Virus genome (UHGV): UHGV-1290461
Origin: a virus
DNA length: 18,322 nt
Direction: 5' to 3' (one strand)
A program made the position numbers and the translations under genes. The notes beneath the pieces were generated by a model. The model saw only the letters and a list, made by a program, of their open reading frames with translations. It was not told the DNA's origin and made no database searches. Shown in pieces: positions 1-18,322 of the stretch (position 1 is its first letter; every line of letters begins with the position of its first letter).

Positions 1-940
1 CGAGAACATGGCGCGGAAGGTGGATAATCAGCAACTCATGAGCATCAAATCGCAGCGATTCCATCACACCATCAGCCAGTTCATCAGCAGTGTAGGAGCG
101 GAGGATTTTCTCAATGCTCGCGCTGGCGATTGGTGACACCTGACCGGAACCGATGATGTACACAGACGGCGCACCTGTTGCCGGATTGCTGATGAACGCA
201 TAAGAATCAGCAAACGGCGTTTTGCAGTAAGTCCCGGCAATGCCTTTCTGCACCATCAGCGATGGCTGTGCGACATACAAAGCAGCACCAACAGTGGTTG
301 CACCAGTCAGGGAGAAATATTCAATCGTCGACGAGCCAAAGCAGACGATGAAGTCTCGCCATGTACCTATGCCGATGATTCCGTCAGGCTGAGACTCGGC
401 ACGATATTGTGCACTGTAGCGGTCAGGATGCGATTCGTCTTCAAGGTCAGTGATAAACCATGAATCAGTGCCGTCTTTTGACCACGCATAACGCCCACGT
501 AAGCGCGTAATGTCGCGTACTGAGCCTAACTCATACTGCGTGAATCCGCTGTCTGTAGGCCAGTTTGAGACGGTTTTAACCGTGCCATCATAGCGATACT
601 CGACCAGTTGACCATTAACGCCTACCGCCTGTGATGTTCTACCATGCGCCATTGATACGCGACCACTTCCGGCGACATCACCGACCTCACTTTCGCCCTT
701 ATACAGTTTGCCACCACACACGCGATAAACAGCATTCTGCGCCATGTTGTACTCGACGCCCCGCGATACGCCGTTCACATCAGAACGTTTGGCAATGCCA
801 GGGAATGAGCGAAGATATCCGCTGCTGTTGAGTATTTCTTTGGGCGTAGCCAGCATATTCACTGGCAGATAGTCGATATAGTCGGCGTTTCGAAAGTCTT
901 TGCCGACACCTTTCATAAGCGGAAGTTGCTGAATCGGCAT
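1..940 (-). CDS. Tail accessory factor, P22 gp10-like; N-terminal ~313 codons, 3' end lies beyond the window start
   Basis: ATG at 940 (minus). Hand translation gives MPIQQLPLMKGVGKDFRNADYIDYLPVNMLATPKEILNSSGYLRSF..., open to position 1. N-terminus resembles P22 gp10 as recalled. Sits directly downstream of the gp4-like gene, as in P22 (5-4-10 order). Confidence 0.72.
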   Translation of the reverse strand, partial: MPIQQLPLMKGVGKDFRNADYIDYLPVNMLATPKEILNSSGYLRSFPGIAKRSDVNGVSRGVEYNMAQNAVYRVCGGKLYKGESEVGDVAGSGRVSMAHGRTSQAVGVNGQLVEYRYDGTVKTVSNWPTDSGFTQYELGSVRDITRLRGRYAWSKDGTDSWFITDLEDESHPDRYSAQYRAESQPDGIIGIGTWRDFIVCFGSSTIEYFSLTGATTVGAALYVAQPSLMVQKGIAGTYCKTPFADSYAFISNPATGAPSVYIIGSGQVSPIASASIEKILRSYTADELADGVMESLRFDAHELLIIHLPRHVL

Positions 941-949
941 TTATTCACC

Positions 950-1411
950 TCACGTACTCGGATCATCTTTCTCGATGTAAAACCGATTCCACGTAAACGC
1001 GCTTTTTAACCCCGCCCCGCGAGGCATGTCATTTCGTCGCTCAAGTGGTGGTATTTTGGTTAAAGCGATACAGATTGTTTGATATGCACTGTCAGCAGCG
1101 GTAAGGAGAGCGTCTGACGGCTGAATGACGTTATCCATGCACACTTGCACAGCGAGTTTCAAGGCGACGCCATCATTTGCCCATGCAGGGATACCTGAAT
1201 CATCGTCAGGTAACGGCATGATGCCGTTTTCTGTATCAGCAAACTGATATCCAAGCTCGATACCTTTAGCCTGCCATGCTGCCATCATGTCTTCGAGGTC
1301 ATTAATGGCATCTTCAATTGCCTGAGGGTCAGCATCTGTCAACGTGGCATTGGAATACAGCCCGGCTTTTCGTAAAGCCTTAAGAACGAGATCACCCTTC
1401 GTTTTCGCCAT
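950..1411 (-). CDS. Head completion / tail accessory factor, P22 gp4-like
   Basis: 153 aa ORF. N-terminus MAKTKGDLVLKALRKAGLYSNATLTDADPQAIEDAINDLEDMMAAWQ matches the recalled P22 gp4 pattern (KTKGDLV..ALRK.G..SDATLTDV.PQ...DA.DDLE.MMA.W). Located after coat. Confidence 0.75.
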   Translation of the reverse strand: MAKTKGDLVLKALRKAGLYSNATLTDADPQAIEDAINDLEDMMAAWQAKGIELGYQFADTENGIMPLPDDDSGIPAWANDGVALKLAVQVCMDNVIQPSDALLTAADSAYQTICIALTKIPPLERRNDMPRGAGLKSAFTWNRFYIEKDDPST

Positions 1412-1580
1412 CTTCTTCCGCCTTAGCCACTTTATGCTTCGTTGCGGTTTCTTCAGGAGTTTTTACCCAGCCTTTTTTCAGGTGAGATTTAACTTCTTCG
1501 TCATCAACAATGATGTAATCGACAGCAAACTGACCACAGGTGATCATGTTGCCCGGCTTATAGAGCATTGTTCGTGCCAT
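1392..1580 (-). CDS. Hypothetical small protein between coat and gp4-like gene (62 aa, acidic C-terminus)
   Basis: ORF-track ORF 1392..1619 trimmed to the internal ATG at 1580 (MARTMLYKPG...), which is preceded by GGGAGAAG. The upstream part of the ORF overlaps a terminator hairpin. Overlaps the gp4-like start by 20 nt. Confidence 0.4.
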   Translation of the reverse strand: MARTMLYKPGNMITCGQFAVDYIIVDDEEVKSHLKKGWVKTPEETATKHKVAKAEEDGENEG

Positions 1581-1590
1581 TGTCTTCTCC

Positions 1591-1614
1591 CAATAAAAAT
1601 GGGGCCGAAGCCCC
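1591..1614 (-). terminator. Putative rho-independent terminator just downstream of the coat gene
   Basis: Minus-strand RNA GGGGC-UUCG-GCCCC (GC stem, tetraloop) followed by AUUUUUAUU, 8 nt after the coat stop codon. Confidence 0.5.
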
Positions 1615-1621
1615 ACCAAAA

Positions 1622-2875
1622 TTACTGCCCGGCAATAACGATGCCCGTATATTCAGGAACAAGTACAGAGCAACCGTACAGAGTGGTGAAACGAGCAGTG
1701 GTTACGCCTTTGATGTGGTCGAAGGCATAAGACATGATCAGCGTAGCGCCCTGCTCGGTGGTTGCTGTCATTACCTGTGGCCCCTGCCCAGTCGGGAACG
1801 CCAGTTTGCCGTACATCAGTTCAACAGAACCATCAGCCCAGAACAGGTTAGCCGGTGCGGCATTTTTGTTGAGAATGGTGATTGCTGCTGATGCTGCCGG
1901 CTTGGCATCGACGTTTGCATATGGACGACTCGCAACATCGGCATTTTCAACAGGGAGAATCTTTGGAGAGATTGTTACGGTAGTTCCGCTAACAGCCAGA
2001 ACACGGAATACCTGCGGTTGCCCGGTGGTATCTTTTGTGATCTGGTGTACGGAATTCACACCGGCAATGGTGAACGCATCACCAACCTGCAAGCCAGATG
2101 CAGATACCGTAATAGTCCCCTGTCGGTTATCAACTGGCATACCATTTGAATCTTTCGCTTCAACCTTGTGTTCAGGTTGGCCTGATACTGTCAAGGATTC
2201 AGCGCTTCCTTTCGGTAATCGACCAGAAATATCGGTCTTGTAGCTATCAAAGGAAGCAACCGGAGGGATCTGCGCTTTTTCGTATGCTGTCAGGGTTGCG
2301 CCCTGAGCATAGGCACGGTGACCAAGCTCGCCAGCAAGGTCTTTGTAGTTGAATGGGTTCCAGAAAGAGCGGCGGTTGATACCCTGTGGTACACCAATCG
2401 CCGTCATGGTGGCATCAATACCTGCCGCACAGTTCCACAAATCACGGCCCTGTGAACCAGTGGTTGAGTCAGACATTGTGATCACGTTAGTAGCACGCTG
2501 CGTAACCATGGAAATCAGGTCAGAGTCAATCTGTGCAGCAAGGCGCATACCTGCGGCGCGACCAGCTTCAGTTTTATGTTCCGGGTCACGCATTTCACGC
2601 GCATCCAGAGTGTACAGAATGTTTTTCGGCTCCTTGAACACTGAAGGAACAAGGCGCTGAACCAGTGCTGTTGGCGTTTTGCCGCTGAGATCGAGGCCTT
2701 CCTCAATGTTCATGTGGTAATGCTGCGGACGATACAGAACATCACCTGCTCGCTGCATTGCTGTATCACCGGGACGGAATTTTTTAGCGTTACGGGAAAC
2801 TACGCAGGCGGCCTCAAAGCCTTCAACGTAGTTTTCGAACATGATTTCAAGGTCTTTTGCTAATTGGTTAGCCAT
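1622..2875 (-). CDS. Major capsid (coat) protein, P22/Sf6 gp5-like
   Basis: 417 aa, the size of P22-like coat proteins. Follows the scaffold gene. GGAG Shine-Dalgarno upstream of the ATG at 2875. Conserved stretches (AKK..P...MQR near the N-terminus, FWAD near the C-terminus) recalled from P22 coat. Confidence 0.82.
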   Translation of the reverse strand: MANQLAKDLEIMFENYVEGFEAACVVSRNAKKFRPGDTAMQRAGDVLYRPQHYHMNIEEGLDLSGKTPTALVQRLVPSVFKEPKNILYTLDAREMRDPEHKTEAGRAAGMRLAAQIDSDLISMVTQRATNVITMSDSTTGSQGRDLWNCAAGIDATMTAIGVPQGINRRSFWNPFNYKDLAGELGHRAYAQGATLTAYEKAQIPPVASFDSYKTDISGRLPKGSAESLTVSGQPEHKVEAKDSNGMPVDNRQGTITVSASGLQVGDAFTIAGVNSVHQITKDTTGQPQVFRVLAVSGTTVTISPKILPVENADVASRPYANVDAKPAASAAITILNKNAAPANLFWADGSVELMYGKLAFPTGQGPQVMTATTEQGATLIMSYAFDHIKGVTTARFTTLYGCSVLVPEYTGIVIAGQ

Positions 2876-2893
2876 GCTTAATGCTCCGATAGG

Positions 2894-17778: not shown

Positions 17779-17808
17779 CAGCCTCACAACTCTAAAACAC
17801 ACAACAAT

Positions 17809-17840
17809 AACCCGACCTTAGCGTCGGGTTTTCTTTTTCC
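17809..17840 (+). terminator. Rho-independent terminator downstream of cI
   Basis: aaCCCGAC-cttagc-GTCGGGtt hairpin followed by TTTTCTTTTTCC on the plus strand, 30 nt after the cI stop. Confidence 0.65.
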
Positions 17841-17903
17841 AAAATATAAACCCATTAAATACAAAGCGTTATAAAAAACTAATTATATTTAGAACGTTTT
17901 GTA

Positions 17904-17932
17904 TTGACTCGATAAAGTACAAACCGTACTAT
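17904..17932 (+). promoter_or_regulatory. Putative pL promoter (-35 TTGACT, 17-bp spacer, -10 TACTAT) with an overlapping palindromic candidate operator
   Basis: TTGACT at 17904-17909 and TACTAT at 17927-17932. The spacer contains AAGTAC-aaacc-GTACT. About 40 nt upstream of nutL. Confidence 0.6.
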
Positions 17933-17972
17933 TTAGCCATCAGCAGGACGCACTAACCACCATTGAAGGTGA

Positions 17973-18003
17973 GGCTCTTAAAAATTAAGCCCTGAAGAAG
18001 GGC
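17973..18003 (+). promoter_or_regulatory. nutL (boxA GCTCTTAA and boxB GCCCTGAAGAAGGGC)
   Basis: boxB hairpin GCCCTGAAGAAGGGC is identical to lambda nutL boxB as recalled. boxA-like GCTCTTAAAAATTAA lies upstream. Between pL and N. Confidence 0.8.
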
Positions 18004-18175
18004 AGCATTCAAAGCAGAAGGCTTTGGGGTGTGGTGAAGGGTTCATGGATGGGAATATGTCGCACGTAAAGCGGCGAGGCCTGCGGAACTATTGCCGAAT
18101 TGAAGTCGGCCGAAGCAGGTCGAAATGGGTCTCCCACCTACCACACCACCAAAGCTAACTGACAGGAGAATCCAG

Positions 18176-18322
18176 ATGGATGCACAAACACGCCGCCGAG
18201 AACGTCGCGCAGAGAAACAGGCTCAATGGAAAGCAGCAAATCCCCTGTTGGTTGGGGTAAGCGCAAAGCCAGTTAACCGCCCTATTCTCTCGCTGAATCG
18301 CAAACCGAAATCACGAGTAGAA
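18176..18322 (+). CDS. N: Antiterminator N, N-terminal 49 codons (continues beyond the window end)
   Basis: Hand translation MDAQTRRRERRAEKQAQWKAANPLLVGVSAKPVNRPILSLNRKPKSRVE matches the lambda N arginine-rich motif and N-terminus as recalled. AGGAGA Shine-Dalgarno upstream. Confidence 0.9.
   Translation, partial: MDAQTRRRERRAEKQAQWKAANPLLVGVSAKPVNRPILSLNRKPKSRVE

Follow-up and report, generated by a model that had tools for sequence, protein, structure and literature searches.

The 18,322-nucleotide (nt) stretch of the virus genome UHGV-1290461, here called the window in its entirety, raises a simple question. Does it hold an unusual hybrid phage, or an ordinary member of a group that is mosaic throughout? 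A sequence-only reading of the same DNA had described lambda-type early, immunity and lysis modules, with an 82-type Q antiterminator, joined to a P22/Sf6-type packaging and head module. We conclude that the window is, very probably, about half the genome of a temperate P22-like (Lederbergvirus) lambdoid Escherichia coli phage or prophage, assembled from interchangeable modules. The mosaic is real. The special chimera that the sequence-only reading implied is not, since the architecture is standard for P22-like phages. These phages are known to show just such a mosaic pattern (PMC2629481).

A patchwork of known lambdoid segments

The gene map was built from Pfam, PHROGs, NCBIfam and PDB searches (Table 1). 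Long open reading frames (ORFs) are nearly all on the minus strand; genes are read mainly in that direction, and their order is given here from position 18322 down to 1. The early part comprises the N start, nutL, pL/OL and cI (these on the plus strand), OR/pR, cro, nutR, cII and an oop-like unit. Next are O with its iterons, genes for a DnaC-like loader and a Ren-like protein, the nin region, Q, the late promoter pR', tRNA-Asn and tRNA-Thr. Last are the lysis genes S, R and Rz/Rz1, a cargo slot with orf91, a DUF2560 gene, and the genes for TerS, TerL, portal, scaffold, coat, a small protein and gp4, with the start of gp10. The lambdoid layout is therefore complete: N/nut, divergent cI-cro with OL/OR, cII, O with an origin (ori), nin, Q with pR' and a holin-endolysin-spanin cassette occur in lambda order. 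Similarly, PF16510, PF11651, PF11650 and PF11134, which mark a Lederbergvirus, occur in P22 order. As the sequence-only reading had recognized (3-2-1-8-5-4-10), the run TerS-TerL-portal-scaffold-coat-(orf62)-gp4-gp10 reproduces P22 genes 3-2-1-8-5-orf69-4-10.

Logically, a mosaic should resemble different phages in different places. The opposite outcome, uniform moderate identity to one reference, did not occur. Instead, identity to any single classical phage jumps between more than 93% and undetectable. The fraction of the window at 85% identity or above is 11% for lambda, 12% for P22, 32% for HK620, 35% for Sf6 and 65.5% for CUS-3. In megablast searches, 620 of 50,697 phage records match the window and none reaches 80% coverage. 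The top phage relatives are all Lederbergvirus: vB_EcoP-720R6 (75% coverage, 96.7% identity), CUS-3 (65%, 96.8%) and phiv205-1 (61%). Some part of the window is matched by 5,114 of 5,426 complete E. coli genomes; three cover at least 80%, the top one 84% at 97.3%. Once Dewey, N7 and the E400634 prophage are added as references, only 13705-14099 and 18040-18130 remain below 85%. The former matches Stx2a phages at 96.7%, and the latter 683R2/Louie at 99%. We conclude that the window holds no new sequence; each segment has a known-phage relative at 85% identity or more.

Comparison with named phages shows how the segments are distributed. CUS-3 (CP000711), a K1-specific P22-like coliphage, matches positions 1-8410 at 96.4% nt identity, and the lysis genes, Q, NinH and RusA at 97-98%. 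However, in CUS-3 the helicase P is DnaB-type, and neither O nor the cI/cro/cII/N set is that of the window. CUS-3 is also without the tRNA pair at 10241-10397, carries other cargo in the slot at 8410-8781, and has roi/hkbD in place of the two HNH-type genes of the window. The top overall matches in the annotated collections are 720R6 (ON470605) and the E400634 prophage (NZ_CM128600; 84% at 97.3%). Head module, lysis genes, tRNAs and Q are common to both and to the window; E400634 has the replication and immunity genes in common with it as well. The replication module of 720R6 differs, being of the primase/helicase kind. In E400634, the nin genes are different, a gene for a GIY-YIG nuclease separates cII from O, and the lysis genes are followed by Rha/Gp49 cargo. 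Sf6 has an identical N start and a Q-tRNA-S-R-Rz block (8781-10977) that is 97.7% identical, while HK620 matches in NinB, RusA and NinH (98-100%). Both differ from the window in scaffold (33%), portal (56%) and gp4 (41%), in a coat without detectable similarity, in DnaB-like helicase replication and in immunity. Lambda shares the N start, both boxB elements, S, R, the first ~83 residues of Rz, the C-terminal domain of cI and fragments of NinE/NinF; we found no similarity in the head genes, in P and Q or, on the immunity side, in cro, the operators and the N-terminal domain of cI.

To map the joints, we clustered the ends of high-scoring segment pairs (HSPs) against 13 references. The window contains 47 such breakpoint clusters, at least 17 of them within the nin region. 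Of these 47, 21 lie no more than 15 nt from a gene boundary. Random placement gives 4.2 ± 2.0, and none of 10,000 permutations reached 21. Joints inside genes are at domain or tail borders: cI near residue 95, O at residue 115 and again before its last 19 residues, the TerS tail, the last 18 residues of TerL, and Rz near residue 83. Note that lambda similarity in O stops at residue 115, beside the iterons. The joints proposed in the sequence-only reading, at about 8200-8780, at 10240, and in the middle of O and of cI, were all recovered, although that list was very incomplete. The searches show directly which genes are present, of which sequence types, and where the joints lie.

Types of the individual modules

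The sequence-only reading assigned N, the nut sites and immunity alike to lambda. For N and nut, the assignment holds. All 49 N residues within the window equal those of lambda N, and the exact lambda boxB occurs twice, against 0.01 copies expected by chance. The boxA beside each boxB has one mismatch (GGCTCTTA at nutL, AGCTCTTA at nutR); exact lambda boxA, CGCTCTTA, is absent from the window. Hence, the N36 motif and boxA-boxB sites are those of lambda N antitermination, with the C-terminal part of N lying beyond the window. In the N leader, between nutL and the N start (18027-18149), is a small variable patch of 90-120 nt, unlike Sf6, 720R6, Dewey and E400634, with flanks that are 96-99% identical to them. 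Lambda is ~77% identical over 18001-18250.

The claim of lambda immunity did not survive. Cro is of the HTH_3 type, with no similarity to lambda Cro, and the cI N-terminal domain differs from that of lambda. The lambda operator (OR1) was not found in the window at up to three mismatches; the OR and OL regions instead have operator-like repeats of 17-20 nt in common. Similarity of cI to lambda (93.8% nt) covers 17368-17772 only, from about residue 95 onward, comprising the hinge and C-terminal domain. The whole cI/cro allele, including this lambda-like domain, is found in many Stx phages at 92.8% nt identity and in 683R2, Louie and Dewey at 99%. By sequence type, the immunity set is therefore that of a non-lambda group common to Stx phages and Dewey/Louie.

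Late control was also assigned to the wrong phage. Of the two relevant families, PF06530 corresponds to Q21 and PF06323 to Q82 (PMC9388147). A Pfam scan of the window Q at E ≤ 0.01 gave PF06530 and PF06576 only; PF06323 was not among the matches. Over residues 1-162, the window Q aligns at E 1e-91 with 6jnx/6p18, which are solved structures of Q21; PDB 6P18 is the Q21-loading complex. At the nucleotide level, Q, its leader, tRNA-Asn and tRNA-Thr (10241-10978, 738 nt) are 88.2% identical to phage 21 and 98.6% to Sf6. Phage 21 (OL657228), compared over the late-regulation module, has the same order of Q, pR'/tR' leader, tRNA-Asn and tRNA-Thr; the tRNA pair is also in Sf6. Compared to Q21, the window Q has 10 extra C-terminal residues, and the substitutions are scattered, mostly past residue 100. 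We conclude, from Pfam membership and from the identity to both the Q21 structures and the genome of phage 21, that Q is of the phage 21 family and not of the 82 type. A Q21-type qut/tR' leader should follow at ~10399-10452, as judged by transferring coordinates from the annotated pR', qut and tR' of Sf6 along a 97.7% HSP. QuuD, from the DLP12 prophage of K-12, belongs to the same Pfam family as the window Q, yet is 28% identical. We also considered, and rejected, a DLP12-like late module; nucleotide similarity to DLP12 amounts to one 270-nt stretch, at 76%, in Rz.

Head genes described as P22/Sf6-type are closer to CUS-3. The coat is 98% identical to that of CUS-3 and 29% identical to that of P22 (2xyy at E 7e-38 only), and tblastn gave no Sf6 match. 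The top coat match, the 416-residue chain 8skg, we take to be the CUS-3 coat; the entry itself is labelled only 'Putative coat protein'. Scaffold, portal and gp4 have the same affinity (Table 1). By sequence, then, the procapsid is CUS-3-type rather than Sf6- or P22-type. In gp10, amino acid identity is 100% to Sf6/HK620 and 94% to P22, and nucleotide similarity to all three stops at 941-950. The assignment of packaging to a P22/Sf6 type was right for TerL, which is Sf6-type. It was not right for TerS, which is CUS-3-type with a tail that resembles Sf6. Only the last 30-37 TerS residues are Sf6-like; PDB Sf6 gp1 aligns to residues 110-146 only, and the body is ~35% identical to Sf6. Conversely, TerL residues 1-453 are invariant across the window, Sf6, CUS-3 and HK620, the last 18 residues are CUS-3-type, and high Sf6 identity ends near 6134-6150. 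Neither terminase subunit has a P22 match. Each tail matches the neighbouring partner gene: the TerS tail goes with TerL, and the TerL tail goes with the portal.

One further discontinuity is within the portal gene. Over 150 nt (4850-5000, codons 360-406), identity to CUS-3, 720R6 and E400634 is 60-72%, with flanks at 96-100%. Ten CUS-3-type phages have the other allele (~69%), and only phiv205-1 matches, at 97.7%. With 16 amino acid changes and 21 synonymous codon changes, the patch points to a small conversion tract inside the gene.

The replication genes are lambda-like at the family level only. For cII, described as lambda-like, identity to lambda is 49%; for the O N-terminus, likewise described, it is 58% over residues 1-115 only, and the C-terminal half of O is unrelated. 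Directly after the conserved N-terminal domain come the iterons, as in lambda, an arrangement that marks an O-type initiator. The loader was correctly called DnaC-type and not lambda P. It matches E. coli DnaC (6qel) at E 6e-32, with no similarity to lambda P (PF06992; BLASTP of lambda P against the window protein, E 1.7). Note that the best NCBIfam model, NF005931 DnaC, scores 155 bits, below the equivalog cut-off of 357. Hence, the protein is DnaC-like rather than a DnaC orthologue. Phage N7 is 98-99% identical over 14351-16516 (the Ren-like gene, loader, O and cII 3' end) but its c2/cro immunity is P22-type and its Q lambda-type. The O protein of mEpX1, a Hendrixvirinae siphovirus with an unrelated virion module, is 98% identical to that of the window.

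Several observations concern the edges of this module. A sharp joint lies inside cII at 16516 (about codon 53). The cII 3' end, oop-like unit and O move with the replication module (98% to N7 and to L014-L016), and the cII 5' half with the immunity module. The layout of the oop-like unit matches the annotated P22 oop promoter and terminator. Relatives have nuclease genes between cII and O (GIY-YIG in E400634, HNH in Dewey), where the window has a gap of 34 nt (16359-16394). At the other end, the last 19 residues of O (ENFATKDYGQTEMPSWAQE; 15514-15573) also end the otherwise non-homologous initiator of Dewey/Louie, which is 23% identical and has no Pfam family (Dewey, L007, 9394-9453). The same tail is present in record Stx1_121427. 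In the three annotated cases (N7, mEpX1 and Dewey), the tailed initiator has the gene for a DnaC-like loader directly downstream.

Lysis genes S and R are lambda-like, as described (99% aa each). Lambda similarity of 93% nt spans 8971, in mid-Rz, to 10240. The same description fits Rz/Rz1 in part: the first ~83 codons of Rz are lambda-like, and the C-terminal ~62 residues of Rz with mature Rz1 are P22-like (93% nt to P22 over 8781-9185). Overall, Rz is 59% identical to lambda. The cargo gene that follows, orf91, is not in CUS-3, Sf6, HK620, P22 or lambda, and has no PADLOC, Pfam or NCBIfam match. Among deposited phages, the full slot sequence (8150-8800) is in HK140 and N7 only, at 98.2% nt identity. 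The linker consists of sub-blocks 8178-8276, 8278-8413 and 8420-8475. Its carriers are P22-like podoviruses and HK022/mEp-type siphoviruses. In relatives, cargo is inserted at 8277: gene 66 in Sf6, and Gp49-family genes in E400634 and in prophage contig L017, described below. The minus-strand RNA of the linker has a folding z-score of -4.4, and the copies available for covariation are 88-100% identical. There was no Rfam match for the linker, and an E-value search of 8100-8800 was empty.

Independent copies and competing explanations

A mosaic might also be a chimeric contig, assembled from reads of two or more phages in a mixed sample. One near-identical contig is itself a metagenome assembly, in keeping with such an artefact. 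However, window positions 1-16076 (16,076 nt) recur at 99.94% identity in two contigs, one from NCBI assembly GCA_047685325.1 and one from an ENA metagenome, and a Logan contig is 100% identical over 851-9157. The exact portal protein is found on eight contigs examined from the assembly collection. In addition, every joint is present in sequenced isolates, for example CUS-3, Sf6, Dewey and N7, and an exact 40-mer over the joint between NinH and the Q21-type Q occurs in 61 IMG/VR contigs. Because independent near-identical contigs have the same arrangement, an assembly chimera is excluded, and we give this explanation practically no credence. A scan of genome contigs with the 40-mer returned only JAUVQU010000080.1 (L019), 9.7 kb long and labelled as part of a Cellvibrionaceae metagenome-assembled genome; it is probably a phage contig that was mis-binned or is a contaminant.

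The same collections show the modules in other combinations. Prophage contig L017 (GCA_049607805.1; E. coli-type) is 100.0% identical over 10974-18322 (7,349 nt, zero mismatches). Past the joint, L017 has a lambda-type Q (PF03589) and a P22-type terminase, and the switch is exactly at the 4-nt overlap of NinH and Q. Similarly, an identical O protein adjoins three Cro types (lambda, P22 and HTH_3), Q of the Q21 or lambda family, two lysis cassettes and three terminase types. We conclude that the joints of the window are common currency in the lambdoid gene pool.

Could the window nonetheless be an exceptional chimera, one that combines a P22/Sf6 head and an 82-type Q with early, immunity and lysis modules from lambda itself? 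A lambda likeness of 93-100% is indeed seen in N, the boxB elements of nut, S, R and the C-terminal domain of cI, and the gene order is that of P22. However, lambda covers just 11% of the window at 85% or above; cro and the operators are non-lambda, as is the N-terminal domain of cI, with cII at 49% and the O N-terminus at 58%. Moreover, Q is in the Q21 family (88% nt to phage 21), and coat, scaffold and portal are CUS-3-type. Lambdoid early regions are, in any case, present in all P22-like phages. We therefore regard such a chimera as very unlikely. A defective cryptic prophage, with intact-looking genes that yield no virions, would differ from the P22-like mosaic in activity only. Pieces of P22-like phages are certainly widespread, as the 5,114 of 5,426 complete E. 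coli genomes indicate. On the other hand, the expected genes from N to gp10 are all full-length ORFs, 97-100% identical to plaque-forming isolates, and we saw no insertion sequence or pseudogene in the window. Furthermore, contig L011, 99.94% identical over 16 kb, continues past gp10. In the needle position is a 233-residue ORF that has no Pfam family; PF11039 (DUF2824, gp14 position) and the ejection genes follow, with PF25688 (gp7), PF16928 and PF26808 (gp16), and the stretch covered ends short of the tailspike that is also expected. A cryptic prophage is thus improbable, if less so than the exceptional chimera.

The P22-like lambdoid mosaic is contradicted by no evidence that we found. The functions of the genes are assigned by homology, and the window includes no host flank or attachment site, so that the DNA may be from either a prophage or a virion.

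Feature map and predicted workings

Table 1. Coordinates of features and principal joints, from position 18322 downwards. Percentages are identities to the phage named.
Feature	Position	Strand	Evidence and remarks
N antiterminator, first 49 codons	18176-18322	+	PF11438 (N36) E 4e-27; runs off window
nutL boxB	17989-18003	+	exact lambda; preceded by boxA
OL/pL region	17855-17936	+	pL at 17904-17932 (promoter scan)
Terminator-like hairpin after cI	17809-17830	.	bidirectional; terminator scan
cI repressor	17083-17778	+	PF01381 N-terminal helix-turn-helix, non-lambda; PF00717 S24 C-terminal domain, lambda-type from nt 17368
OR/pR region	17030-17115	.	pR at 17063-17034, minus strand (promoter scan)
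cro, HTH_3 type	16792-17007	-	PF01381; 100% to Dewey and E400634
nutR boxB	16752-16766	-	exact lambda; preceded by boxA
cII-family activator	16394-16675	-	PF05269 E 4e-30; 98% to E400634 prophage
oop-like antisense unit	16334-16428	+	promoter 16334-16362; strong terminator 16396-16428 overlaps cII 3' end
Replication initiator O	15514-16359	-	PF04492 on residues 21-115; TIGR01610
ori iterons inside O	15911-16005		4 copies, ~24-nt spacing, each with dyad symmetry
DnaC-like AAA+ helicase loader	14666-15529	-	PF01695 E 2e-18; PF00308
Ren-like/MarR-like small protein	14379-14669	-	phrog_1687, phrog_142; 41% to lambda Ren over 58 aa
nin region	10975-14382	-	Pfam, PHROGs, PADLOC homing-endonuclease (HEase) model, gene calls on near-identical contigs
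tR2-like hairpin	14329-14353	-	terminator scan
Four small ORFs	13406-14297	-
NinB	12993-13403	-
NinE	12820-12996	-
NinX	12458-12817	-
NinF	12289-12465	-
HNH homing endonuclease	11787-12296	-
YbcO-like/HNH	11519-11794	-
RusA	11160-11522	-
NinH	10975-11163	-
Q antiterminator, 172 aa	10460-10978	-	PF06530, 89.8 bits against cut-off of 26
Late promoter pR' (TTGACA-18-CATAAT)	10453-10482	-	11/12, top promoter match in window; overlaps Q gene end
tRNA-Asn(GUU)	10323-10397	-	ARAGORN and Rfam
tRNA-Thr(UGU)	10242-10317	-	ARAGORN and Rfam
Holin S, lambda type	9676-9999	-	PF05106
Endolysin R, lambda type	9216-9692	-	phrog_90
Rz i-spanin, lambda/P22 hybrid	8782-9219	-	PF03245
Rz1 o-spanin, embedded in Rz	8835-9020	-	lipobox LVVSAC
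orf91, cargo gene	8470-8745	-	phrog_34701, function unassigned; 91 aa with hydrophobic N-terminal stretch; slot 8413-8781
Conserved non-coding linker blocks flanking cargo slot	8176-8475	-	207 phage records, 80-99% identity
DUF2560 protein (P22 orf80/HK620 hkbM)	7933-8175	-	PF10834 E 3e-42; 96-98% in all P22-like references
Small terminase TerS, CUS-3 type	7490-7930	-	phrog_309; 99% CUS-3
Large terminase TerL, Sf6 type	6078-7493	-	PF04466; PDB 4idh (Sf6 gene 2 protein), 1050 bits
Portal, CUS-3 type	3878-6076	-	PF16510 E 5e-170; 97% CUS-3, 56% Sf6, 35% P22
Scaffolding protein, CUS-3 type	2894-3787	-	phrog_648 E 2e-118; 99% CUS-3, 33% Sf6
Major coat protein, CUS-3 type	1622-2875	-	PF11651; PDB 8skg E 1e-275, 6mnt
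Terminator-like hairpin after coat	1598-1617	-	position of annotated t-coat of Sf6/HK620
62-aa ORF, P22 orf69/HK620 hkbT position	1392-1580	-	97% to CUS-3 ORF there; no Pfam family
gp4 head-tail adaptor, CUS-3 type	950-1411	-	PF11650 E 7e-39; 99% CUS-3, 39-41% P22/Sf6
gp10 head-completion/DNA-stabilisation protein, N-terminal 313 aa	1-940	-	PF11134 E 2e-194; runs off window
Joint, mid-cI	17368		lambda similarity begins
Joint, mid-cII	16516
Joint, O tail	15573
Joint, tR2-like hairpin	14350
Joint, HNH/NinF border	12279-12294
Joint, RusA border	11522
Joint, NinH/Q overlap	10974-10978
Joint, tRNA-Thr end	10238-10240
Joint, mid-Rz	8971-9011
Joints, edges of cargo slot	8403-8413 and 8781
Joint, TerS/DUF2560 border	7927-7935
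Joint, TerS tail	7575-7578
Joint, TerL	~6134		18 codons ahead of stop
Joint, gp10/gp4 border	950

Few features remain beyond the modules already described. The homing endonuclease in the nin region is free-standing, with NUMOD4 and HNH_3 domains, and is 100% identical to the Dewey copy. Among ten small or unknown ORFs searched with PADLOC, homing-endonuclease models were returned for this 169-residue HNH protein only. There was no NCBIfam match for orf91, Q, TerS, scaffold or the small nin ORFs. Over the whole window, Rfam at the gathering threshold returned the two tRNAs and nothing else.

How might the modules work together? From the gene types and layout, we infer a standard temperate circuit of the lambdoid kind that would drive a P22-like podovirus, with the following activities. 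Lambda-type N would act on the lambda-type nutL and nutR sites. Immunity would be governed by the non-lambda cI/cro/operator set, through a repressor with a lambda-like C-terminal domain, and the cII-family activator would be paired with the oop-like antisense unit. O may bind the iterons in its own gene and recruit the DnaC-like helicase loader. The phage 21-type Q would load at pR', and read through tR' and the two tRNA genes. Lysis would depend on a holin and an endolysin of lambda type together with a hybrid pair of spanins, and headful packaging on a procapsid module of CUS-3 sequence type with an Sf6-type large terminase.

The route by which each joint arose is likewise a matter of inference. 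The patchwork was presumably built by repeated horizontal exchange among lambdoid phages. This could involve homologous recombination in conserved flanks or linkers, or illegitimate joining followed by selection. Such exchange, with selection, would leave surviving joints at gene borders, or at the borders of protein domains and interaction tails, and the joints of the window fit this classical model. Note that the records of Sf6 and CUS-3 carry annotated 'boundary sequences'. A more specific idea is that the intragenic joints mark portable docking peptides that move with their partner (O tail and loader, TerS tail and TerL, TerL tail and portal), and that the linker at 8176-8475 provides recombination handles for cargo swaps. 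We put this forward tentatively, considering it possible rather than likely. On the same lines, the O tail ENFATKDYGQTEMPSWAQE could be a loader-recruitment motif of DnaC-type lambdoid replication modules.

The window is a new combination of known modules, already in public assemblies, and an instance of textbook lambdoid mosaicism. A phage genomicist will not be surprised, and the import beyond correct annotation is small. Even so, near-clonal relatives, one of which is 100% identical as far as the NinH/Q overlap, allow the joints to be mapped to the nucleotide. The corrected types of Q, head and TerL, immunity and loader alter predictions about heteroimmunity, late-gene control and packaging specificity. 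Finally, the C-terminal tails that travel with their partner genes provide testable hypotheses about protein interfaces.

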